A DNA stretch of 64,000 nt, taken from positions 2,837-66,836 of the forward strand of contig CAZNAI010000002.1 of assembly GCA_964571235.1 (NCBI GenBank), read 5' to 3'. The position numbers and the translations under genes were made by a program. Below the pieces are notes generated by a model that was given only the letters and a program-made list of their open reading frames with translations, had not been told where the DNA came from and searched no databases. This document shows, piece by piece, positions 352 through 43,021 of the stretch. How positions within the stretch are numbered: the first letter of the stretch is position 1; each line of letters begins with the position of its first letter. The DNA comes from an uncultured Ignavibacteriales bacterium. GTDB lineage: Bacteria; Zixibacteria; MSB-5A5; GN15; FEB-12.

Positions 352-1167
352 TTAAAGCCGAACAGAGAATTTGATCGCCGGATGGCCCTCGATGGTGGAA
401 GGAAGAATCGACACCGGAGAGGTTCGTCGATCCGAGCGGCGGGCCAGTTTCAACGAAATATATGTGCCAAGCAGTCCGCCCGCGATAACATCGCTCAGAT
501 AGTGCTTGCCCTCCTGCAGTCTCGATAGCCCGACATATCCGGCAATGGCAAAGGCGCCGATGCCCCAAGTTTTGCCAAAGTGCGTGTACACGGCGCCGGC
601 GGTTGCAAAAGCGGATGATGTGTGACCCGACGGATACGAATAGGGGGTTCCGTCCGGTCGTGTTCGATTGATTCCCCGCTTGAAAACGGTTATGAGAAAG
701 CCATTGGCCGCCTGTACTCGGAATAAATCAGTCCCGAAATTCGCCAATGAGGGCGCTCCAAAGGTCTTGCCCGCCGACCACAACGTTGCCGCAACCCCGA
801 CTGGAAAAGCGCCGTCGCCGACGATCTCTCCCACTTCAAAGAGATTGTCGGCAAAAGTCGAACTACCCCATATCTCGGTGAAGAGGGGGGGCTCCCGCTC
901 GATTGCTCTCGGGAAAAGGCCGGGGATGATCGACAGTCCACCCACCACGGCATGGAAATCGGGCTGACCTGATAGATAACTCAAGTCGTTTATCATCTGC
1001 ACGAAGAAAAAGCGGCGTTTTGGAGACTCGGTTGTCGGCGCTGTGTAGAAAGCACTCGTGGCTTTCCGCAGGTCGCCCGGTGACGCGGTGCGCACAGGGG
1101 CACAATTGCCGGCTTTCCACAACGAGAGGCATAGAACAAGCCCTGCTACGGTTGTAGGAAGGTTCAC
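352..1167 (-). CDS. PAP2-superfamily phosphatase (membrane or periplasmic)
   Basis: The three PAP2 motifs are present: [13 protein letters not shown] and [13 protein letters not shown]. It has an N-terminal signal or TM segment. Its GTG start overlaps the msrB stop as GTGA. Confidence 0.85.
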
Positions 1168-1757
1168 TCAGTTTTGTCGCTTGATGGTGTGGGTGATATT
1201 GAATCGGATTTCTTGAAATCCAACGAGGCAGAATTGACACAGTATCGCAGGCCGGTTGGATTGGGGCCGTCCTCAAATACATGGCCCAAGTGCGCACCGC
1301 ATTTAGTGCAGGAGATTTCCACCCGCCGCATGCCCAGCGTGTTGTCAGAATGCTCAGCAACCGCTGAGGATTCGACCGGTTGATAAAAACTTGGCCAGCC
1401 ACTACCTGACTCGAATTTCGTACTTGATTCAAACAACTCCGCCCCACAGCAGATACAGTAGTATTTCCCGTTTTCGTGGTTGTTCCAGTACTTGCCGGTG
1501 AAGGCGCGTTCGGTACCCTTCTGACGGGTAATGCTATATTGCTCCGGAGTGAGCCGGGCTTTCCATTCCTCTTCGGTTTTAGACACGAATGTCATCCTTT
1601 CGGTTGAACCCGATTGCACCGCAACCTTGTCGGTTTGAGGGGTAGTCGGTCGCGAATTAACCTCCATGGCAAAGTAGACGATGCCAGCGGCAATACACAC
1701 TGTTGCAAGCACAATTGTAATAGTCATTTGGATGTACCTTGTTCTCCCCGTCCGCAC
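1164..1757 (-). CDS. msrB: peptide-methionine (R)-S-oxide reductase MsrB; the long form carries an N-terminal TM helix
   Basis: Matches include [19 protein letters not shown], two CxxC pairs (CICC, CTKC) and GHVFEDGP...RYCVNS. Start is uncertain: 1757, 1727 ([22 protein letters not shown] helix) or 1595 ([12 protein letters not shown], the usual cytosolic N-terminus). Confidence 0.9.
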
Positions 1758-31800: not shown

Positions 31801-32604
31801 ATGAAGTACGCCTGTGTCATCACTAATCTGCTCGATCTTTGGGCCGAGCCCCGGTACAATTCCGAGCGCAAGAGTCAGCTCTTGTATGGTGACATCGTCG
31901 CTCTTGGAGTCCGGCGGGGCGGATTTGTCCGTGTGACGGAATCCGACGGATACTTCGGCTGGGTCGATGATCGCTTCCTCTATCCCGCCACAGGAGCAAG
32001 AGTGAAACCGGCGAGAGGTTGGCGCCGGGCGATTGTATCTAATTCATCGATCCGTATTGTCTCTTCCGATCCTCGGTCTGAAATTTCCCCGCACTTTCTG
32101 TACTACGGGACTCGACTGCTGGCACGCGCCGGAAGTCTCGGAAAGTGTGAAGTCAGGCTCGCTTCGGAGCAAACCGCCGAAGTGCCGAGTCGCGGACTTC
32201 GATTTGAACAAGAGATTTCCAATATCGGAGAGCCGAGACTGATTTTGGCCGCATCGAAGAAGTTTCTCGGCGTACCCTATCTCTGGGGTGGTACGACACC
32301 GGCCGGCTTTGATTGTTCCGGTCTCGTGCGGGCAGTCTTCGGCCAGTTCGGCATCTATCTTCCCCGCGATACTAAAGATCAGATTAAGGTTGGGGAAAAA
32401 GTAAACCGCGAAGAAGTTCGGGCCGGTGACTTGCTCTTTTTTGATCGTCACGTTGCCTTGGCGATGAGCCGTACTGCGATCATACATGCATCGCGCAGTG
32501 CCGGCGGTGTGCGAGTCCAATCTCTGAAAAAGGGAGATACCGACTATAGGGCCGACCTTGACCGCGATTTCAAACTGGCAAGGAGACTCATTGATACGGA
32601 TTGA
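31801..32604 (+). CDS. C40 (NlpC/P60) peptidoglycan endopeptidase with N-terminal SH3-like domains
   Basis: YLWGGTTPAGFDCSGLVRAVF (catalytic Cys) and GDLLFF..HVAL (His). Resembles YkfC-type gamma-D-Glu-diamino acid endopeptidases. Confidence 0.85.
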   Translation: MKYACVITNLLDLWAEPRYNSERKSQLLYGDIVALGVRRGGFVRVTESDGYFGWVDDRFLYPATGARVKPARGWRRAIVSNSSIRIVSSDPRSEISPHFLYYGTRLLARAGSLGKCEVRLASEQTAEVPSRGLRFEQEISNIGEPRLILAASKKFLGVPYLWGGTTPAGFDCSGLVRAVFGQFGIYLPRDTKDQIKVGEKVNREEVRAGDLLFFDRHVALAMSRTAIIHASRSAGGVRVQSLKKGDTDYRADLDRDFKLARRLIDTD

Positions 32605-33622
32605 AGTTTTCAAACTGAATCTTCCTTTGCGAACCCGCTTTGCGGTAGCCAAAGGATCTGCCGATGTCAAAACGAATCTGCTGGCAGTTCTGAACAACCG
32701 GTATATCGGCGAGGCGGCGACGTCCGTCTACTATGGCCCGACTCTTGAGCAGTTGGAGAAGGACTTGCAAGCCGGGGCTCGCTTCATCGAACAATTGGGT
32801 GCAATTGACAATGCGACCCTTGAGAAAGTATCGCAATTGACGATCAATCCGATCGCTCGGTCGGCGTTGACTGGAATGCTCCTGAACTACTTGTCAGGCG
32901 AATCCGGCCGGTACCCGTGGGAGATTCTATCGTTGTCTACACCGGTTGGAATCAAGAGTTCTTTCACTATCGGTATTGATGATTCTTCAAAGATGGTATC
33001 AGCTATTCAAAACAGCGAATACCCGATTGTTAAAATAAAGCTGGGCGGACCTGATGATGTGAAAGTAATCGAATCTCTCAAAGATGTAGTCGGTAAGGAG
33101 ATTCGTGTCGACGCCAACGGTGGGTGGGATCTGGCCCGTGCGGAAGAGATGATTTACTACCTGGCCCGTGCCGGAGTGACAATTATCGAACAACCAACCG
33201 AAGCAAAGTTAGTTGCCGATTGGCCGCGTCTTAAGGGGAAGAACGCCGAAGTCGAATTGGTTATTGATGAGGGAGTCGGCTCAGTCGACGATTTCGACGC
33301 GGTTTCGGCCAATGTTGACGGCGTGAATATTAAGATGGAAAAAAGCGGCGGCATTTTGGAGGCGCTCAAAGTTGCCGAGTCGGCCAAACAGTCGAAAAAG
33401 AAGATCATGCTCGGGTGTATGGTATCGTCGTCGGTCGGGATTGCTCAGTCGGTGTATATGTCGTCACTGGCCGATTACATCGATCTGGACGGCCCTCAGC
33501 TACTCCAGCACGATATAGCTCGTGGTATAACATTTCACCGTGAACATATAGAAGTCGACCGCGAGATAATCGGCGGCCCGACCTTAATCCGTGATGTTTT
33601 CGAAAAGTACATTGCTTCGTAA
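32591..33622 (+). CDS. dipeptide epimerase (L-Ala-D/L-Glu epimerase, enolase superfamily)
   Basis: IVKIKLG, RVDANGGW, IEQP, VIDEG and IKMEKSGG. TTG 32591 sits 5 nt after aggag. The track ORF starts at ATG 32558. Confidence 0.85.
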   Translation: MIRIEVFKLNLPLRTRFAVAKGSADVKTNLLAVLNNRYIGEAATSVYYGPTLEQLEKDLQAGARFIEQLGAIDNATLEKVSQLTINPIARSALTGMLLNYLSGESGRYPWEILSLSTPVGIKSSFTIGIDDSSKMVSAIQNSEYPIVKIKLGGPDDVKVIESLKDVVGKEIRVDANGGWDLARAEEMIYYLARAGVTIIEQPTEAKLVADWPRLKGKNAEVELVIDEGVGSVDDFDAVSANVDGVNIKMEKSGGILEALKVAESAKQSKKKIMLGCMVSSSVGIAQSVYMSSLADYIDLDGPQLLQHDIARGITFHREHIEVDREIIGGPTLIRDVFEKYIAS

Positions 33623-35489
33623 CGCAATCCTGATTGCCGTGGCCGCGCTCTCGGTAGTGAGAGCGGCAGACTCCAGCGATACTTCAGGTATTGTGGTGGT
33701 CTATCCAAGACCCGGACAGACAATTACCGCAACCGATTCCACGTTTATATTGGGGCACCTGTCGCGATCACTGATGAAGATGGTCCCGGCGGCCGCCTCA
33801 GTGAAGTCCGCTCTCACTTTGAAAATCAACGGCCAGACAGTTTCGGTTCATGCGAAGGGCGGATTCCTGGCGTTCCTGCCTATCAAAAAGGGTGACTTCA
33901 CCTTTGAGCTGAAAGTCACAGGTGGTAGCTCCCATACCGCCATGACGACTTTAGCGGAAGTGAGTCTTCCAGTCAAAGTGGGAAGTGACTTGCGCATTGC
34001 GGGGGGCGATTCGCTGGTTATCGCCGGAGACTACCGCCCTCCTTCAGGTGATCTGGCGTTGACATCAGGTGACCGCCTCGAAGTCAGCTTTCGTGGCACC
34101 TCTGGCGCGACCGCATGGTTTGGAATAAAAGGTGTGGTCGACTCGGTTCCAATGTCAGAAGTGGTACTCAGCGGATCGCCATACTGGGGTGAAGCGGTAT
34201 TTGGTGAGGGAACGGTTCCCGAAGAAGTGCCGTCGGAGGGTGTCTACTCCGGCTTTTGGACAATATCTCCCAATGCGAAGATCTCCGCGACCGAGATCAG
34301 CTACAATTTGTGTCGCACGAAAACCGGTACTAAAACAGGTGAATGTGTAACTACCAAGTCCGGTTACAAAGTCTCTCTTAATAGCGATCTGTTTCCGTTC
34401 ACAGTTCGACTGACCGATTCCGTGCAGACAATGCGGGTAGGGCCGCGCCTGGGATATTTCAGCATATACCAGCCGAAAGGGATTGATGTGCTGGCAGTCG
34501 GGGCGGAAGCTGATTGGTATCGAGTCCAACTTTCCACCACACAATTTGCGTGGGTAGCTAAAGCTTCGGTTGAGCGTTTAGCTCCCGGCATACTTCCGCC
34601 GACCTCGCGTCTAACTTCGATCAGGTCGTACGACACCGGCAGGGCCACAACGCTGACATTTCCTCTTTCCGGTAAACACACCTATCGGGTCATCGAAGAA
34701 TCCTCCCGCCGTCTTGTACTACAGCTCTTTGGTGTGACCAGCAATACCGATTGGATTAGGGCACAATACGGCTCACCTATCATCGATTTTTGCACCTGGG
34801 TTCAGCGAGAAAACGGCCTGTATGAGTTTGCGATAAACCTTCGCGAGGCGCTCTGGGGGTATGACTGTTACTACCAGGGAAATACATTTTGTCTCAAGAT
34901 CATCCGTCACCCGAAATCACCGAAACTGCTTGCCGGCAAAACAATTGTAGTCGATCCGGGACATTCCGCCGATCCGGGATCAATCGGCCCGACAGGATTT
35001 ACCGAAGCCGAAGCAAATCTCGGAATTGCGTTGGCGCTTCGTGATGTCCTCAAAGCGAGAGGCGCAAAGGTCGTCATGACCCGGTCGGATATGTCCAATG
35101 TACCGCTGGCGGATCGTTCGGTGATCGCCAAGGCCGCCAACCCGGATCTGTTTGTTTCAGTACACAACAATTCGCTCCCGGACGGGGTAAATCCGTTCAC
35201 CAACAACGGGACATCGACTTTCTACTACCATCCGTGGTCGAAGGACCTCGCCAAGTTCATCTTAAGCGAATTGCTCAAGGCAACCACGCTCCCCGATCAC
35301 GGTCTCTATTGGGGGAATCTGGCAGTGAGTCGTCAGACTTGGTGCCCCGCTGTTTTGGTTGAGTGCGACTTCATGATATTGCCTGAGCGCGAGGCATTGC
35401 TGGCGACCAAAAAATATCAGACGACACTGGCAACAGCTATTGCAACCGGCATCGAAAACTTCCTGCGGAGTTATCCCAATGGGCGGTGA
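33591..35489 (+). CDS. N-acetylmuramoyl-L-alanine amidase (Amidase_3) with a large N-terminal domain
   Basis: Signal peptide. The C-terminal region has IVVDPGHSADPGS, TEAEANLGIALAL and FVSVHNNS. Confidence 0.85.
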   Translation: MMFSKSTLLRNAILIAVAALSVVRAADSSDTSGIVVVYPRPGQTITATDSTFILGHLSRSLMKMVPAAASVKSALTLKINGQTVSVHAKGGFLAFLPIKKGDFTFELKVTGGSSHTAMTTLAEVSLPVKVGSDLRIAGGDSLVIAGDYRPPSGDLALTSGDRLEVSFRGTSGATAWFGIKGVVDSVPMSEVVLSGSPYWGEAVFGEGTVPEEVPSEGVYSGFWTISPNAKISATEISYNLCRTKTGTKTGECVTTKSGYKVSLNSDLFPFTVRLTDSVQTMRVGPRLGYFSIYQPKGIDVLAVGAEADWYRVQLSTTQFAWVAKASVERLAPGILPPTSRLTSIRSYDTGRATTLTFPLSGKHTYRVIEESSRRLVLQLFGVTSNTDWIRAQYGSPIIDFCTWVQRENGLYEFAINLREALWGYDCYYQGNTFCLKIIRHPKSPKLLAGKTIVVDPGHSADPGSIGPTGFTEAEANLGIALALRDVLKARGAKVVMTRSDMSNVPLADRSVIAKAANPDLFVSVHNNSLPDGVNPFTNNGTSTFYYHPWSKDLAKFILSELLKATTLPDHGLYWGNLAVSRQTWCPAVLVECDFMILPEREALLATKKYQTTLATAIATGIENFLRSYPNGR

Positions 35490-37283: not shown

Positions 37284-37313
37284 GTCAAAAGATAGATCGG
37301 TTGCGTCGACTAA

Positions 37314-37508
37314 TCAACGTCGGCCACCGAGAATCCTTGAGGGTAATAGGAAGATCGCCTTGACCAGTTCCATCACGCCCATCACCGCTATACCAAGCAA
37401 GCGGAAAGGGAGTAAGACAAGCCAGATCAGTGGAAACAAAATGAGTGCCAGCAGAGCCAGCGGCCAGCAGATGACCAACAGAATGCACCAGAGGAGGAAA
37501 GTCAGCAT
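37314..37508 (-). CDS. small hypothetical two-helix membrane protein
   Basis: MLTFLLWCILLVICWPLALLALILFPLIWLVLLPFRLLGIAVMGV.... ATG 37508 has GGAG 12 nt upstream. The track ORF begins at TTG 37526. Confidence 0.4.
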   Translation of the reverse strand: MLTFLLWCILLVICWPLALLALILFPLIWLVLLPFRLLGIAVMGVMELVKAIFLLPSRILGGRR

Positions 37509-37582
37509 ATCTATTTTACACTCCAACCGCGATCATGTTATCAAATATACTCTCGGTCGTCCAGTTTTATTCAACATAAGAG

Positions 37583-37649
37583 ATGTCGAATTCTCTCGCT
37601 GACGCCCGACCCCGTTTGCGGCGGGGCATGGGGTTTCGACCTACAAGAC
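37583..37649 (+). repeat. hairpin module copy 1 (ATGTCGAA ... TTCGAC-CTACAAGAC)
   Basis: Outer stem gtcgaa (37585-90) pairs with ttcgac (37635-40). The inner hairpin is ccccgtt-tgc-ggcgggg. About 58 of 67 positions match copy 2 in a hand alignment. Confidence 0.7.
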
Positions 37650-37782
37650 CGGGGAGAGCAAAAGACTTGTGTGTGACCCGACGGGTACATATCTTTTCCC
37701 TGCATTGCTTTTCAAGTCACTGGGGGGTCGCCAGGCCCTCTGTAAAGAGTAACTGCTTTGACATTCGAGGAGGTGAATCAGT

Positions 37783-37986
37783 ATGCGCAAATTGATTGTT
37801 GTCGCCCTCATCGTCTTCGCCATGGCGTTTGCCATCGGTGCGACCGCTCCGACACCGGTCAGCGCCGCCAACTGCTACTACACCTGTAGCTGTACCGGCA
37901 CTCCGCTGTATTGTTGTAAAGTGGGCAGTGTAACCACCTGCAAGTTCGCTAAAGGTTTTCAGTGTCCGCAGATTATCACCTGCTAA
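37783..37986 (+). CDS. Sec-exported cysteine-rich cationic mini-protein precursor (28-aa signal peptide plus 39-aa, 8-Cys mature part)
   Basis: GAGGAGG (37767-73) lies 9 nt before the ATG. The signal peptide is MRKLIVVALIVFAMAFAIGATAPTPVSA. The mature part is ANCYYTCSCTGTPLYCCKVGSVTTCKFAKGFQCPQIITC, and a terminator hairpin follows the stop. Confidence 0.65.
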   Translation: MRKLIVVALIVFAMAFAIGATAPTPVSAANCYYTCSCTGTPLYCCKVGSVTTCKFAKGFQCPQIITC

Positions 37987-38007
37987 TAAGGGTGACGGTC
38001 TCGATTT

Positions 38008-38040
38008 TGGGGTGCGGCTTTGCAGTCGCACCCGTTTCTT
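38008..38040 (+). terminator. Rho-independent terminator or attenuator between the peptide gene and the TlpA-like gene
   Basis: gggtgcg (38008-14) pairs with cgcaccc (38025-31) around a 10-nt loop, followed by gtttctttt. Confidence 0.55.
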
Positions 38041-38068
38041 TTGGAGCATGTAAGAGGGAACATATATC

Positions 38069-38647
38069 ATGTCCAGTTCTGGAAATTCCACTTTGAAATC
38101 TGTTTTGATGGTTGTCGTTGTGTTTGTCGTGGCCGTTGGGGGAGTGCTTCTCGGGATGAGACTCCGGGACAACGCAGGCGCTGAGCCGCAAATGACTTCT
38201 GAAGATTCAAATGCTCCCACGAGTCTTCTGAAAGTCGGCGAGGTGTTTCCCAATGCACAGGTGATCGATGAAGGGGGCTTAGGTACAACAACCGATGATA
38301 TACTTGGCGGCAAAGGGGCAGTGGTTCTTCTCATGGAACTGGGATGCCCGCCGTGCAAAGAGATGTCGGAAAAGTGGCAGACGGCGATCAATTCCGGAGA
38401 AGCGAAGGAGATTCCGCTTTACGGTGTGACGATCAATCTGCCGGTGAATATCAGGCCGTATCGGCTCAAGCACAATTTGACGTTTCCTATTTACTCCGAC
38501 TCGGCAAATTTCTTCATGGATTCGATGCTGGTCGAGAATTATCCGTTGCAGGTGGTGGTTGGGAAATCGGGAACGGTGCAGTCGTATACCTTTGACTCCA
38601 ATGAGAAGCTGGATTTTGAGAGGTTGAGGGAAGAGCTGGCGAGGTAG
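38069..38647 (+). CDS. membrane-anchored thioredoxin-fold thiol:disulfide oxidoreductase (TlpA/ResA/redoxin-like, CPPC)
   Basis: N-terminal TM helix LKSVLMVVVVFVVAVGGVLLGM, then VGEVFPNAQVIDEGG...GKGAVVLLMELGCPPCKEM, the typical TlpA/AhpC-TSA layout. Confidence 0.8.
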   Translation: MSSSGNSTLKSVLMVVVVFVVAVGGVLLGMRLRDNAGAEPQMTSEDSNAPTSLLKVGEVFPNAQVIDEGGLGTTTDDILGGKGAVVLLMELGCPPCKEMSEKWQTAINSGEAKEIPLYGVTINLPVNIRPYRLKHNLTFPIYSDSANFFMDSMLVENYPLQVVVGKSGTVQSYTFDSNEKLDFERLREELAR

Positions 38648-38690
38648 TGGCAGGGCCACGGCCGTTGTCGCAGTACGTGGCTTTGCTTCC

Positions 38691-38797
38691 GTTTAGATGT
38701 CGAAACCTCTCGCTACGCTCGACCTCGCCTGCGGCGGGGCAAGGGATTTCGACCTACAAGACTGGGGGCAGGCAGGAAGCCTGCCGCCCACGACGAA
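38691..38797 (+). repeat. hairpin module copy 2 plus a GGCAGGC-aggaa-GCCTGCC hairpin
   Basis: ATGTCGAAA (38697-705) ... TTTCGAC (38747-53) CTACAAGAC (38754-62). The 22-nt gggcaggcaggaagcctgccgc at 38766-38787 is identical to 40796-40817. The block is flanked by tggctttgcttcc at 38678-90 and 38798-810. Confidence 0.7.
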
Positions 38798-38822
38798 TGG
38801 CTTTGCTTCCACGCAACCCAAA

Positions 38823-39374
38823 TCAATCGTGATCCAAGTGTGATGGTTGGTAGTTTAGAATTGTATCGCTTAACGGGGCGGCGAGGGAGTCGTCGTTGAA
38901 ACAGGTGAAGTCCCCCCACTGGGCAAGTTTTATTCGTTTGGCTTTGTTCCTACCGGTTGATATGTAGACCGAGGTCAACCAGGTCCCCATGTCGCTACCA
39001 GAGTTCATGCACCCCTGCCAATTTCCCTTGGCTACCCGATTTGATGATTGTAGCATCCAGATAAAAGTAGATGAATCGACGGAATACCCGAGTGGGTCGG
39101 TGTCGGCGAGAAGTTTTGCGAAGATGTCGGGAGTGTAAACGGTGACGGTGTCAAGCAACTCCCAGATCGCGTCACTCTCGGAGTAGGTGACATCGTAGAC
39201 GCGGCCGTGTTTGTCGATGTAGGTGGCGAAGTGGTGATATTCAAAGGCAAAGTTGATGTACTCGGCCGAGGCGACGATTTGTGGCAGGTCGGCCGATGAC
39301 GAGACGATGGTGTCGGAACAGGTGGGGAAGACCACCAGGGTGACCAGCGCGAGTATCAGCCGTTTCATACTCAT
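38823..39374 (-). CDS. hypothetical secreted protein or lipoprotein (orphan)
   Basis: GGAGG SD lies just upstream of ATGAGTATG. The signal peptide is MSMKRLILALVTLVVFPTC. No recognisable domain. Confidence 0.6.
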   Translation of the reverse strand: MSMKRLILALVTLVVFPTCSDTIVSSSADLPQIVASAEYINFAFEYHHFATYIDKHGRVYDVTYSESDAIWELLDTVTVYTPDIFAKLLADTDPLGYSVDSSTFIWMLQSSNRVAKGNWQGCMNSGSDMGTWLTSVYISTGRNKAKRIKLAQWGDFTCFNDDSLAAPLSDTILNYQPSHLDHD

Positions 39375-39464
39375 ATGACCTCCAGAGTTTGATTGCCGTA
39401 ATATAGACGAATTAATCCGTTACATATGGCAAAAAAATAACGGCGAGGCGAATTGGGTTCGTGT

Positions 39465-39497
39465 GCAGTGGCAGGGCCACCGCCTGGGGCCTTCGGC
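39465..39497 (+). repeat. 33-nt dispersed repeat GCAGTGGCAGGGCCACSGCCTGGGGCCTTCGGC (copy a)
   Basis: Differs from copy b (39669-39701) at one position. A partial copy AGTGGCAGGGCCACGGCC lies at 38646-38663. It contains a ggcc-ttcg-gcc tetraloop hairpin. Confidence 0.75.
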
Positions 39498-39668
39498 CTG
39501 TTGGATGGCAAATTGGGTTCGTTCGTGCACTTTTGTGTGACGAACAATAACGAAGACTCGGATATGCGGCGGAGAGATAAGGCATTAGCACACAGAATGG
39601 GTTTGGTCGAAGGGGACGGCATGGTAGTGCTCTCGTAGTAATATTGCAGGAGGAACTGGCTTTGTTTC

Positions 39669-39701
39669 GCAGTGGCAGGGCCACGGCCTGGGGCCTTCGG
39701 C
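39669..39701 (+). repeat. 33-nt dispersed repeat (copy b)
   Basis: Starts 204 nt after copy a, in the same orientation. Confidence 0.75.
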
Positions 39702-39929
39702 GCTTTGTATTGAGAGTTTTCCATAGTCCCATTTCCATTTGATCGCACCCATTTCTTGTAAAGCACGTCATTAGGCGCGCGTTCAATTAAGGTGTGCGGG
39801 GGCAAGAATTGGGGAGAAAGTGTAGGGAATTTGTGGGATGTGGATTGCTCGCGTCTCGACTACGCTCGACGCGTCGATGCCGCGCAATGCAATCAGTAAT
39901 AGCCAAAATTACTATTCATAACATTTTCA

Positions 39930-40523
39930 CTAGTTTACCTGCTGCAATTCATCAAACATCTGGTAGCCAAGTGAGTCGCCTATATTCTGAGGCATAAGGC
40001 CAGCCACAAAGTAAGATCTATACGCGTTGCCAACTAAGTCTCGATACCTGAGGCAAAAATGAGTGTAGATTGGCTTACTTGTATCTGCTGGAGGATTGCC
40101 AACCATGTCGGCTCTCGACGACTTGTGTAAAGTGTCCCCAACTTGCAAGCTGGTGAACGGCGGGGAGAAATCGTCTGGTGGCAGACATATTTCAAGACGC
40201 TTAGATGAGGAAATTCGGGGAAATTCGACCTGCAAGTCTAGGGCCATATTGCCGCCACGATTTATGATATCGTAATTGACTTTGAGAGAATCCGGAACTG
40301 AATCGATATTAGCTGCGAAGACGTCAATTCCTTTCAACTTCACGAATAGAATAGGCCTAAAAGAAGCTTCTTGTATCCGCGCTGTTCGCTTATTGAGCGA
40401 ATACAGATAAAGTGAAAGTGACAGCGTAAGAATAAGTCCACACGCGGCCGTGTAAAACTGCCAGTCGCGGTAGAATTTCGGCTTGGGACAGCACTTAGGT
40501 CCCTTTTGTCTAATTGCCTTCAT
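39930..40523 (-). CDS. hypothetical membrane-anchored protein (orphan, lower GC)
   Basis: 197-aa ORF with one TM helix (YTAACGLILTLSLSLYLYSL). Three hand-counted 100-nt samples gave 42-45 percent GC. Its ATG is 7 nt downstream of the tRNA-Arg 3' end. Confidence 0.5.
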   Translation of the reverse strand: MKAIRQKGPKCCPKPKFYRDWQFYTAACGLILTLSLSLYLYSLNKRTARIQEASFRPILFVKLKGIDVFAANIDSVPDSLKVNYDIINRGGNMALDLQVEFPRISSSKRLEICLPPDDFSPPFTSLQVGDTLHKSSRADMVGNPPADTSKPIYTHFCLRYRDLVGNAYRSYFVAGLMPQNIGDSLGYQMFDELQQVN

Positions 40524-40530
40524 ATCAAAA

Positions 40531-40602
40531 TACCCCCGTTAGGAATCGAACCTAAATTTCCGGCTTCGGAGGCCGACGCGCTATCCGTTGCACCACGGGG
40601 GC
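40531..40602 (-). tRNA. tRNA-Arg (anticodon CCG)
   Basis: The reverse complement GCCCCCGTGGTGCAACGGATAGCGCGTCGGCCTCCGAAGCCGGAAATTTAGGTTCGATTCCTAACGGGGGTA folds as a cloverleaf. It has a 7-bp acceptor stem, D arm GTGC/GCGC, anticodon stem TCGGC/GCCGG with loop CTCCGAA, and T arm TTAGG-TTCGATT-CCTAA. CCA is not encoded. Confidence 0.93.
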
Positions 40603-41302
40603 AATTCTGTGCGTTGCCCACAAGGGCCCTTCGACTGGCTCAGGGTGACTTTTGCGGGCGGGGTATCAGATAACATAAAACGCGCGTGAAGGCAAGGAGG
40701 GATTTAAAGAGCGTCAGGTCACGCTCGGCGAGCGCCGAGACTAAGACCTGACACAACGATCAAGGCAAGCGGCAAAGAGGAGCGCGGAGCGAGACGGGCA
40801 GGCAGGAAGCCTGCCGCACACGGGAACATAACCCGAAATGGGCTACCAAGCAGTGCAGGCTCGGGGACGAGCCTGCCCTACGAAGAGTAAGAGAATCTTT
40901 GAGTTTGATTTGGAAGGCGGGGGGTGTATCTTAATGAGCTAAGAGAGAAAGGCGGGTTCGAAGACGGACCCGCCCTACAAGAAGAAAGAAAAGAGCCCAC
41001 CATGAATGGTGGGTTACCAGGGCGAAGAGAATAAGATGTCGGGTTTCTTGTCCCGCTTTCGCGGGACTGCGGAACACCGACCTACAAGAAAAGATGGATT
41101 CCCGCCTGCGCGGGAATGACATCGGTTAGAGGTTAAGAGAAAATGTCAGGATCACAAGGATCCTGACCTGCAAAAGACATGAAACAAGATGGCGGGTTCC
41201 TGTTTTCGCGGAAATGACAGGAATAAGAGACCCTTCGACAGGCTCAGGGTGAAGTCATAAGAAATGTCAGAGTGAATTCATTGAAAAAGACTGAGAACTA
41301 AT
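40603..41302. repeat. 700-nt BIME-like array of GC-rich hairpin modules with conserved single-stranded flanks
   Basis: At least 8 distinct stem-loops with recurring AAGAGA..ATGTC, CTACAAGAA and AAGATGG...AATGAC flanks. The array is bounded by the 22-nt direct repeat cccttcgacNggctcagggtga (40627-48 and 41221-42). No credible ORF. Confidence 0.7.
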
Positions 41303-43021
41303 ATGAAATGGTCGCAGACGTACATTCCGACACTGAGAGAGAAACAGACCGACGCTGAGCTGATCTCGCATCAGCTCCTGTTGCGCGGGGGATACATTCG
41401 AAAATTAGCGGCGGGGGTTTACTTGTACCTTCCGCTCATGCAAAGAGTGATCGAAAAGTTCTCGCAGATTGTGCGCGAGGAAATGAATCGGGCTGACGGG
41501 CTTGAAATCACCATGTCGGTGCTTTGTCCGGCCGAGGTCTGGCAACAATCGGGTCGGTATGACACGATCGGCAAAGAGCAGATGCGACTCAAGGACCGTC
41601 ACGCGCACGATATGGTTTTGTGCGGCACGCATGAAGAGTCGGTGACGTATCTGGTGGCCGGCGAGGTGAAAAGTTACAAGCAGTTGCCGCTTCACTTATA
41701 TCAGATTCAGGTGAAGTTTCGTGATGAGATTCGTCCGAGGTTTGGCCTCATGCGCGGACGCGAGTTTATCATGAAGGATGCGTATACGTTCGACGCCGAC
41801 CAGGCGTCGTTTGATAAGACCTACAAGAAATTGGTGGATGCCTACTTTGCGGTTTTTAAACGGGCGGGGCTTGAAGTCTTAAAAGTTGAATCGGACACCG
41901 GCGCGATGGGGGGAAAAGCGGCGCACGAGTTTATGCTCTTGGTCGATACCGCGGCGGGGGAAGAGATTATTATCTCGTGTCCGTCGTGCGGGTACGCGGC
42001 CAATGTCGAGAAAGCGACATTCAAAGATAATTCGAAAGTCGCAATGGATTCGGAAATGAAGCCGATGCAGGTGGTCGATACACCGGGAGCGGCAACGATT
42101 GAGCAAGTGACGGCATTTTTGAAAGTAGACTCGAGCCGGTTGGTCAAGACGCTGATCTACATGGCCGACGGCAAACCGGTGGCGGCATTGGTGCGCGGGG
42201 ATCGCGATCTGAATGAGACGAAACTCAAAAATGCGGTGAAGGCGGTTGATCTGGAGATGGCGAACGCCGGGCAGGTTGAGCAAGTGACCAAGGCGCCGGT
42301 TGGATTTGCCGGACCAGTCGGATTGTCGGGAGTGACATTGGTGGTCGATCCACTGGTGGCACAGCTTAAGAATTTCGTTGTCGGCGCTAATCAGAATGAA
42401 AAGCACATTGTGAATGTGAATATCGATCGGGATTTCAAAGCGACCATCGTGACCGATTTGAGCAAAGCGCAGGGGGGAGACCTTTGCCCGAATTGCTCTG
42501 GTACTTTGACCGCCAAAGATGGAATCGAGGTCGGCAACACATTCCAGCTTGGGACCAAATATTCCGTGCCGCTTGGCGCGACATTTTTGGACGCGGAAGG
42601 GAAAGAACATCCGATGCTGATGGGGTCGTACGGGATCGGGATTACCCGAACGCCGCAGGCGGCGCTTGAGAAATATCACGACGACAAGGGGATCATTTGG
42701 CCGAAAAATATCGCGCCGTATCTGGTTGAGCTGATTCCGGTCAATCAGGAGAAAGAAAACTTGGTCTCGGCGGCTGAGCAAATCTACGCCGAACTAACCA
42801 AAGCCGGGATTGAAGTGCTTTACGACGACCGGCCGGAGCGTGCGGGGGTGAAATTCAACGACGCCGACCTGATCGGTTTGCCTATCCGTGTGACGGTTGG
42901 CGATAAGTCGTTGAAGGACGGCAAGGTAGAACTGAAATCGCGGGCGTCGGATCAGGTCGCGCTTGTGGATTTAGGGGAAATTGTAGAGGCGGTCAAAAAA
43001 CTGGCCGAGGGGCTTCGTTAG
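41303..43021 (+). CDS. proS: proline--tRNA ligase (bacterial type with INS editing domain)
   Basis: MKWSQTYIPTLRE, class II motifs (FRDEIRPRFGLMRGREF, GSYGIG) and the inserted editing domain. 572 aa. Confidence 0.97.
   Translation: MKWSQTYIPTLREKQTDAELISHQLLLRGGYIRKLAAGVYLYLPLMQRVIEKFSQIVREEMNRADGLEITMSVLCPAEVWQQSGRYDTIGKEQMRLKDRHAHDMVLCGTHEESVTYLVAGEVKSYKQLPLHLYQIQVKFRDEIRPRFGLMRGREFIMKDAYTFDADQASFDKTYKKLVDAYFAVFKRAGLEVLKVESDTGAMGGKAAHEFMLLVDTAAGEEIIISCPSCGYAANVEKATFKDNSKVAMDSEMKPMQVVDTPGAATIEQVTAFLKVDSSRLVKTLIYMADGKPVAALVRGDRDLNETKLKNAVKAVDLEMANAGQVEQVTKAPVGFAGPVGLSGVTLVVDPLVAQLKNFVVGANQNEKHIVNVNIDRDFKATIVTDLSKAQGGDLCPNCSGTLTAKDGIEVGNTFQLGTKYSVPLGATFLDAEGKEHPMLMGSYGIGITRTPQAALEKYHDDKGIIWPKNIAPYLVELIPVNQEKENLVSAAEQIYAELTKAGIEVLYDDRPERAGVKFNDADLIGLPIRVTVGDKSLKDGKVELKSRASDQVALVDLGEIVEAVKKLAEGLR

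Follow-up and report, generated by a model that had tools for sequence, protein, structure and literature searches.

A predicted Sec-exported eight-cysteine peptide and its adjacent TlpA-like redoxin: a candidate two-gene folding module in uncultured Zixibacteria

The peptide and redoxin genes

This study concerns two adjacent genes in a 64,000-nucleotide stretch of DNA, hereafter the window, from an uncultured Ignavibacteriales bacterium placed by GTDB in the Zixibacteria (assembly GCA_964571235.1, contig CAZNAI010000002.1, positions 2,837 to 66,836 of the forward strand). Positions are counted from the first letter of the window, and those given after a locus label (L007 and the like) are positions in the respective fetched locus. 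The first gene (37783-37986, plus strand) encodes a 67-residue precursor of a small peptide with eight cysteines, and the second (38069-38647, plus strand) a 192-residue thioredoxin-fold protein, predicted to be a thiol:disulfide oxidoreductase (TDOR), which we call the redoxin. A preliminary description of the locus had proposed that the two form a module of a disulfide-rich peptide and its redox chaperone. We found that the pair recurs in unrelated genomic contexts and that its two members diverge together.

The peptide gene was called as an open reading frame (ORF) of 67 codons plus stop, and its ATG at 37783 lies 9 nt after a Shine-Dalgarno (SD) sequence, GAGGAGG (37767-37773, plus strand), which can be read directly as part of GGAGGTGA. 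The precursor consists of MRKLIVVALIVFAMAFAIGATAPTPVSA up to the predicted cut and of ANCYYTCSCTGTPLYCCKVGSVTTCKFAKGFQCPQIITC after it. Its residues 1-28 (37783-37866, plus strand) form a predicted Sec signal peptide, with the n-region MRK, a hydrophobic core of 17 residues and V-S-A preceding the predicted cut. The predicted mature peptide of 39 residues (37867-37983, plus strand) ends in a Cys; its eight Cys are spaced by 3, 1, 6, 0, 7, 7 and 5 residues, and it carries three Lys and no Asp or Glu. The spacer between the two genes holds a GC-rich hairpin of 10 pairs, seven of them G-C, whose stem (38010-38033) is followed by GTTTCTTTTG, so that the element with its T-rich tail spans 38010-38043 on the plus strand. 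An SD-like AAGAGGGA (38052-38059, plus strand), also read directly, lies 9 nt before the redoxin ATG, and the redoxin itself has one hydrophobic transmembrane (TM) helix at residues 12-30 (38102-38158, plus strand) and a single CPPC motif at residues 93-96 (38345-38356, plus strand). All of this, from the placing of the SD sequence and the ORF to the spacing and composition of the mature peptide and the hairpin with T-tract ahead of a single-TM CPPC protein, agrees with the preliminary description.

The redoxin matches the Pfam family AhpC-TSA (PF00578) at 1.7e-9 with 38.1 bits, the gathering cut-off being 26. The redoxin profile search gave a family of at least 16 members, and in the alignment of 16 orthologous proteins (A4) the residues C93, C96, P159, G25 and G29 are invariant. 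The active-site motif is CPPC in 14 of these proteins, CEAC in one and CEPC in one, the latter two belonging to the most distant sequences. P159 falls in what corresponds to the cis-Pro loop of thioredoxins and is by sequence the cis-Pro candidate. One hydrophobic N-terminal helix is present in 16/16 orthologs, and the GxxxG motif formed in it by the two invariant Gly residues suggests that the helix may pack against another copy of itself or against an integral-membrane redox partner. Searched against the PDB as a single sequence the redoxin gave nothing, and the ortholog profile matched 2m72, 5um7, StoA (3erw), ResA (1st9) and Etrx (2yp6) at 1e-11 to 3e-8, with peroxiredoxins scoring much worse than these TDORs.

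With TlpA, ResA, StoA, CcmG and Etrx the redoxin shares the fold family, an N-terminal anchor, a Pro-containing CxxC and a conserved cis-Pro, and on its profile matches it is best classed as a divergent TlpA/ResA/StoA-like thioredoxin-fold protein. It differs from that family in the acidic residue at position -3 of the CxxC, where the Trp-rich W-x-x-W-C context is replaced by E/D-L-x-C, and in the Tyr or Phe that precedes the cis-Pro in most orthologs, where characterised relatives have L, V, T or M. An assignment as a ResA or StoA equivalog was rejected, with NCBIfam scores of 21.8 bits for ResA (cut-off 170) and 13.4 bits for StoA (cut-off 210). The name peroxiredoxin, given by JGI to homologs, was rejected as well, since the PxxxT/SxxC motif is absent from 16/16 orthologs and the window redoxin has only two Cys; in most orthologs the CxxC pair likewise supplies the sole Cys residues.

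Genomic linkage of the two genes

Linkage was scanned by a hidden Markov model search over all six-frame ORFs of the fetched loci. In the window, as in loci L001-L013, L020-L027 and L041-L043, the redoxin gene directly follows the peptide gene in the same orientation; the last three loci were reached from the redoxin side, and all 3/3 of these redoxin-first look-ups gave a member of the peptide family, of 67-70 aa, directly upstream. The paired loci represent 12 unrelated flanking contexts: that of the window together with its syntenic closest relative (L007), and those marked by acyl-CoA dehydrogenase and HypF; Mfd with HNH or PD40; glyoxalases; an FAD-oxidase and GFO-IDH-MocA; glutamate dehydrogenase; CarboxypepD_reg and T2SSE; MatE; an amino-acid permease; BON and APP1; ProS-YHS and a reprolysin; and a sigma-54 activator. 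Apart from the synteny in L007, no other neighbour in the window travels with the pair. The possibility that the redoxin is the ortholog of a ccm- or sco-linked reductase had been raised beforehand, and no ccm, res, sco or msr gene (ccm/resBC/ccsBA/sco) was found in any of the 12 contexts. This distant TlpA/ResA relative, with profile matches near 1e-11, has as its genomic partner a Cys-rich peptide gene and not ccm/res, sco or msr.

In addition, the pairwise identities of peptides and redoxins over 16 loci are correlated (r=0.72), and 0/5000 Mantel permutations reached this value. Linkage evidence of this kind proves only a functional association between the two sequences. Taken together, the 12 contexts, the 3/3 redoxin-first look-ups, the co-divergence and the ResA score far below its cut-off support the earlier proposal that the adjacent redoxin is a dedicated partner and not a housekeeping ccm/sco reductase. 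A strong GC hairpin is found in the spacer of 16/16 paired loci, with unrelated sequences and with a T-rich stretch after several of them, and it is probably a terminator- or attenuator-like element or one that stabilises the mRNA.

Peptides with a six-residue third loop containing Gly (CxCxGxPxxCC) are paired with a redoxin in 21/22 distinct cases, the exception being a TARA ocean sequence, and distinct peptides of the other types, with a five-residue loop or nine Cys, in 0/12. The five-residue-loop type (CICS[VT]PxKCC) comes from soil and rhizosphere and has no redoxin anywhere in its locus. The idea of a two-gene module consequently needs to be narrowed: the module recurs in the six-residue-loop subfamily, and the five-residue-loop and nine-Cys loci are without the redoxin. 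Twelve stand-alone loci offer at least 800 bp of downstream sequence, and no neighbour common to the stand-alone peptide loci was found. A 163-aa ORF downstream of stand-alone soil peptides was considered as a redoxin and rejected (hhalign probability 0.6%).

A nine-Cys subfamily from Acidobacteriota (CxCxCxC...CC...C...C...C; L014-L016 4001-4231) likewise has no redoxin in its locus. With an odd number of Cys, its members would keep one thiol free or could form a bond between molecules.

In L008 (4001-4554), L009 (4001-4728) and L027 (3001-3615) a single redoxin gene comes after two or three diverged paralogs of the peptide gene in tandem, and L041 has an additional truncated peptide remnant of 43 aa (2449-2580). 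One of the paralogs (L009 4263-4466) has its third Cys shifted (C-x3-C-x2-C). The diverged tandem copies and the truncated remnant point to birth-and-death evolution of the peptide genes.

The peptide family, its predicted structure and the surroundings of the pair

The first search gave ten homologous clusters of 66-68 aa, with 54-90% identity and 8/8 Cys invariant. An exhaustive profile search over 1.8 billion representatives returned 44 peptide clusters at E<=1e-3, and a profile search of clusters at 90% identity about 219 clusters of the family, whose members are named 'hypothetical protein' or left unnamed throughout and carry a Pfam domain in no case. In an alignment of 118 sequences seven Cys are invariant and the eighth, C-terminal, Cys is present in 99%. 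The full eight-Cys pattern is found in 147/152 short members, and in 145/147 of these the chain ends exactly at the last Cys. Outside the Cys residues, the same alignment has Ala at position -1 of the predicted cut in 96% and Pro41 in 93% of the members. In 149/149 members positions -1 and -3 of the predicted cut are taken by small residues, and only 1/149 has a canonical lipobox, a pattern from which Sec export followed by cleavage by signal peptidase I can be predicted.

The peptide gene and its counterpart in the closest relative (L007) differ with dS 0.92 and dN 0.06, giving a dN/dS of 0.07, and other pairs of peptide genes gave values of 0.04-0.28. Ten loci whose upstream regions cannot otherwise be aligned share an unchanged SD core, GGAGGTGA. 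That the small ORF is a real gene and more than a chance reading frame is shown by purifying selection, by the invariant SD sequence and by about 219 homologous clusters with invariant Cys. The two signs of a real family sought from the outset, homologs with conserved Cys positions and a dN/dS below 1, were therefore both obtained. The broad alignment of the family (A2) contains no conserved stretch of 7-10 columns. Named records come from Candidatus Zixiibacteriota, Thermoanaerobaculia, Polarisedimenticolaceae and Krumholzibacteria, and several of the metagenome-assembled genomes that carry the family are titled 'uncultured Ignavibacteriales'. The peptide sequence of the window itself occurs, unnamed, on 17 public contigs.

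Searches of Pfam, NCBIfam, PADLOC and PDB sequences gave nothing meaningful for the peptide. The best matches of the peptide profile in the PDB were to a signal peptide and to the N-terminal CxCxG..CC stretch of a DUF3992 protein (E 0.58), and these were judged to be chance. A scan of viral contigs found no relatives of the peptide, and the literature search found nothing on cysteine-rich peptides in Zixibacteria or on TlpA together with a disulfide-rich peptide.

Lys54 (37942-37944; 92%) and Gln63 (37969-37971; 98%) are the most conserved non-Cys residues of the mature region in the 118 members. They could form a binding site or, conceivably, a Lys-Gln cross-link.

AlphaFold2 (AF2), run on the precursor with the 118-sequence alignment, gave a model with a mean predicted local distance difference test score (pLDDT) of 83.7, in which a signal helix (residues 2-20) is followed by three strands. 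The mature peptide alone was modelled at a pLDDT of 84.5 with strands at residues 2-7, 13-19 and 22-27, a C-terminal loop and no helix. When both models were compared with 350,542 PDB chains by Foldseek, no match was better than E of about 2, and among the matches listed there was no knottin, defensin or toxin entry, the small size of the peptide limiting the power of this search. The weak look-alikes (PCNA fragments and a structure of the factor XII heavy chain) were not counted as evidence. At E<=1 a Pfam scan matched no family of toxins, knottins or defensins. Cis-defensins (PMC11561630), actifensins (PMC6989792) and eukaryotic knottins resemble the peptide in being small, secreted and disulfide-rich and in having a signal peptide, and a C..C..CC..C..C sub-pattern of defensins and knottins can be extracted from its sequence; they differ from it in having three disulfides where four are predicted here. 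An assignment to the cysteine-stabilised αβ (CSαβ) cis-defensins, including their five bacterial classes, was rejected, as 0/149 members fit CX(2,18)CX3CX(2,12)CX(4,17)CXC and the AF2 model of the mature domain is free of helix. The knottin or defensin identity suggested in the preliminary description is thus supported neither by family searches and pattern nor by the predicted three-stranded fold and Foldseek.

The label 'cationic' did not hold for the family either. Mature regions vary in net charge between -5 and +3, and the window peptide, at +3, is the positive extreme, so that its charge does not characterise the family. Aromatic residues in the Cys domain number four in the median (five in the window peptide) and His or Met are essentially missing, which favours a folded, disulfide-stabilised core over a metallothionein-like cluster; neither the aromatics nor the confident AF2 β-sheet fit a metallothionein-like metal-thiolate peptide. 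A connectivity of I-V, IV-VI, II-VII and III-VIII could be guessed from the modelled strand register and from a variant (P0051) without both Cys III and Cys VIII, and we regard this guess as too weak to claim.

The pair is bracketed exactly by a direct repeat of about 75 nt, with an upstream copy at 37581-37654 and a downstream copy at 38695-38767 (both plus strand), the latter beginning 48 nt past the redoxin stop codon; whether the repeats belong to the module is uncertain. The copies, the only two in the 64-kb window, are 1114 bp apart and 87% identical over 53 nt, with a 20-nt extension at 90%. The closest relative has a related copy just 3' of its redoxin gene (L007 1003-1059), and none of the other loci contains the exact repeat motif. 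Shuffled sequences fold as well as the repeats do, and the repeats may equally be cassette boundaries or elements like the repetitive extragenic palindromes. A promoter scan found no sigma-70-like site on the plus strand upstream of the peptide gene. A Bacteroidetes-like promoter motif, TTG...TAAATTTG, lies upstream in L003, L010 and L008 and is not obvious in the window. Rfam searches of the whole window, and of 37300-41400 at permissive E-values, gave a tRNA-Arg as the sole match and no riboswitch or leader near the pair.

The genes around the pair encode a CoaE kinase, an aminotransferase, NlpC/P60, an MR_MLE epimerase, an amidase, hypothetical proteins, the tRNA-Arg, ProS, RimP and NusA. 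A peptidoglycan-recycling-like cluster upstream (31801-35489), comprising NlpC/P60 with SH3, an MR_MLE protein resembling dipeptide epimerases and a 632-aa protein with a C-terminal Amidase_3 domain, appears unrelated to the pair. The tRNA-Arg (anticodon CCG; 40530-40603, minus strand) lies 2 kb downstream, and between it and the pair are two minus-strand hypothetical genes of 183 and 197 aa without family matches. The GC content around the pair and the tRNA-Arg is not deviant, except for a dip to 0.46 at 39800-40400. The gene-poor region 38640-41300 contains many short GC-rich hairpins with CCTACAAGA-like tails, on the plus strand only; exact CCTACAAGA occurs five times in the window against 0.17 expected, and further short repeats are found at 39465/39669 (42 nt, 88% identical) and 38766/40796 (27 nt, 96% identical). 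These elements look like a family of interspersed palindromic elements. Near the start of the window, 36 kb from the pair, an MsrB gene (SelR, 2e-53; 1164-1757, minus strand) encodes a protein with an N-terminal TM anchor. By its sequence it is probably an extracytoplasmic methionine-sulfoxide reductase, and as such it would need an extracytoplasmic thioredoxin-like reductant.

A proposed folding module and competing explanations

The arrangement of a disulfide peptide with a private oxidoreductase is already of a known kind. In Bacteroides, the thiol oxidoreductase encoded in the bacteroidetocin cluster is required for toxin activity, and it was proposed to form the disulfides since Bacteroides lacks a general Dsb machinery (PMC6671954). 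Bacteroidetocins (class IIf) and the pair studied here both come from diderm bacteria of the wider FCB group, and both place the gene of a small Cys peptide beside a thiol-oxidoreductase gene. They differ in that bacteroidetocins have a 15-aa double-glycine leader, an ABC exporter with a C39 peptidase, a 5-TM protein and four Cys (PMC6671954), whereas the present peptide has a Sec signal peptide and eight Cys and no gene for an exporter or TM protein beside it; the two oxidoreductases are likened here by their gene arrangement. In Firmicutes, dedicated TDORs that see to the right pairing of the disulfides are PedC for pediocin PA-1, BlpG(St) for thermophilin and BdbA/BdbB for sublancin (PMC4919988). 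Here too the gene of a thioredoxin-fold CxxC protein stands beside that of a secreted disulfide peptide, in monoderm hosts and with double-glycine leaders, ABC transporters, one or two disulfides and immunity genes, none of which is seen in our pair; nor is the 'bacteriocin transport accessory' domain of PedC-type proteins seen in the window redoxin.

Among the hallmarks of class II bacteriocins, the pair has the adjacent TDOR gene, and the double-glycine leader, the C39 exporter and the immunity or TM-protein gene are missing; the leader is instead of the Sec type, with its MRK n-region, hydrophobic core and A-x-A. No ABC/C39 gene was found near the pair in the window or among the called genes of the other paired loci. 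Classes of ribosomally synthesised and post-translationally modified peptides (RiPPs) were rejected too (SCIFF/ranthipeptide, sactipeptide and lanthipeptide), because their maturase families are absent near the pair and in the other paired loci and the N-terminus is a signal peptide. The earlier observation that no radical-SAM, lanthipeptide or ABC-maturation gene lies nearby was confirmed within about 7 kb, and the pair fits no RiPP class.

We propose, with a probability of roughly 0.6, that the two genes form a self-contained module in which an exported peptide with four disulfides is served by a dedicated foldase or isomerase. The Sec signal peptide would take the 67-aa precursor across the inner membrane and be cut off after Ala28, and the released 39-aa peptide, ending in its Cys, would fold as a compact three-stranded β-sheet with four disulfides. 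The redoxin gene would be co-transcribed by read-through of the hairpin or terminator, which in this proposal would keep the enzyme much below the level of the peptide, at a high peptide:enzyme ratio. The membrane-tethered TlpA/ResA/StoA-like enzyme, with its CPPC facing the periplasm, would act specifically on the eight cysteines of the peptide and bring it to the native disulfide isomer. We infer this enzyme-substrate relation from the linkage and the thiol chemistry. A role as reductase or isomerase, that is, in proofreading, is only slightly favoured over one as primary oxidase, because CPPC (StoA, -248 mV) and CEPC (ResA, -256 mV) are reductant motifs (PMC2665060) and the TlpA-fold protein HP0377 has isomerase activity (PMC5909903). 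With its vicinal CC, its CxC and 105 possible pairings, the peptide would plausibly need an isomerase. As to what the peptide does, the conserved scaffold, the variable loops and the tandem paralogs lead us to guess at a binding or toxin-like mini-protein; a role as a classical bacteriocin would likewise be a guess.

Several points weigh against the proposed module. TlpA-fold proteins include both oxidants and reductants, and by its sequence the enzyme may be either. Charges flanking the TM helix indicate the topology weakly (N-in in about 10 of the 16 orthologs, tied in three and opposite in three), so that the CPPC domain is only presumably extracytoplasmic. Related subfamilies without a redoxin imply that the enzyme is dispensable for the fold in some hosts. 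Moreover, in a diderm cell Sec takes the peptide no further than the periplasm, and the pair comes without a gene for an exporter or for immunity, which weakens a bacteriocin role.

It is also conceivable, though in our view unlikely, that the peptide acts in reduced form and that the TlpA-like protein is a reductase keeping its eight thiols free, the peptide then being a periplasmic metallothionein-like chaperone for Cu, Zn or Cd, a sacrificial thiol buffer, or a toxin held inactive in its producer ('immunity by reduction'). Reduction of metal-site cysteines is the classical task of TlpA-type proteins (the TlpA-ScoI paradigm), the CxxC dipeptides match those of the low-potential reductants StoA and ResA, and thiolate clusters typically contain CxC and CC motifs. 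This explanation would also suit the missing exporter and immunity genes, the unconserved charge of the peptide and the membrane-anchored MsrB of the same genome, which implies an extracytoplasmic reducing pathway. The confident AF2 β-sheet (pLDDT 84-85) speaks for a folded peptide, however, and the aromatics (median four) with essentially no His or Met are unlike metallothioneins, while the even number of Cys, their rigid spacing and the terminal Cys (145/147) suit structural disulfides. The sole hint of metal in any locus is a gene with a weak YHS metal-binding domain, some 700 bp upstream of the peptide gene (L041 1973-2341), and it is limited to one context. The TDOR adjacent to a bacteroidetocin conferred no immunity (PMC6671954).

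Less probable still is a link other than that of enzyme and substrate, in which, for example, the peptide would be a regulator, an inhibitor or a redox-sensing ligand for the redoxin or its membrane partner, or both would be parallel parts of an envelope-stress response. Such a link would satisfy the linkage evidence, which proves association only; the invariant GxxxG of the redoxin helix hints at a further membrane partner, and in the peptide, besides the Cys scaffold, K54 and Q63 hardly vary. Yet eight invariant Cys beside a CxxC enzyme make thiol-disulfide chemistry the simplest connection, tandem paralogs with one redoxin resemble multiple substrates and not multiple regulators, and enzyme-substrate pairs of a similar kind are already known (PMC4919988, PMC6671954). 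That the two genes are neighbours by accident, the redoxin being a general ResA/CcmG, Sco/Cu-site or MsrB reductase and the small ORF unrelated or no gene, we regard as very improbable and largely refuted. The best NCBIfam and PDB relatives are indeed ResA, StoA and Etrx, and JGI uses the name 'peroxiredoxin', but the ResA and StoA scores are far below their cut-offs, the peroxiredoxin motif is absent, the 12 contexts are free of ccm, res, sco and msr genes, the small ORF is under strong purifying selection with its 219 homologous clusters, and the anchored MsrB of the window lies 36 kb from the pair.

Within the proposed folding module, what is new is the peptide family, which is unrelated to those described and is predicted to have four disulfides and a C-terminal Cys. 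Predicted Sec export takes the place of a double-glycine leader and an ABC exporter, giving a minimal two-gene cassette in uncultured diderm phyla, and the enzyme appears to be a divergent TlpA-fold protein dedicated to one peptide subfamily. The family may constitute a class of about 220 clusters at 90% identity of Sec-exported peptides of 39-47 residues with four disulfides and a terminal Cys; its records come from Zixibacteria, Acidobacteriota/Thermoanaerobaculia and Krumholzibacteria, and no PDB structure matches its predicted fold significantly. We put forward tentatively, at slightly less than even odds, that the locus is the founding example of a widespread and hitherto undescribed class of bacterial disulfide-rich mini-proteins, one subfamily of which has a private TlpA-fold foldase.

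Annotation is affected at once: the partner genes that sources name 'peroxiredoxin' need correction, and the small ORFs upstream of them have been left unnamed or as 'hypothetical protein'. Knottins, defensins and conotoxins are prized disulfide-rich scaffolds. To our knowledge, disulfide-rich mini-proteins are uncommon in bacteria, most of all in diderm and anaerobic lineages, which often have no general Dsb machinery. Here a large unannotated bacterial family offers an invariant eight-Cys framework with variable loops. One peptide with one enzyme would be a minimal natural folding solution that could be moved into expression hosts, and the module would be a clean system in which to study single-substrate specificity and redox direction in the TlpA fold. 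Should the peptides turn out to be toxins, inhibitors or signals, they would represent a new diderm route to disulfide-rich bioactive molecules, one that uses neither RiPP enzymes nor ABC exporters.

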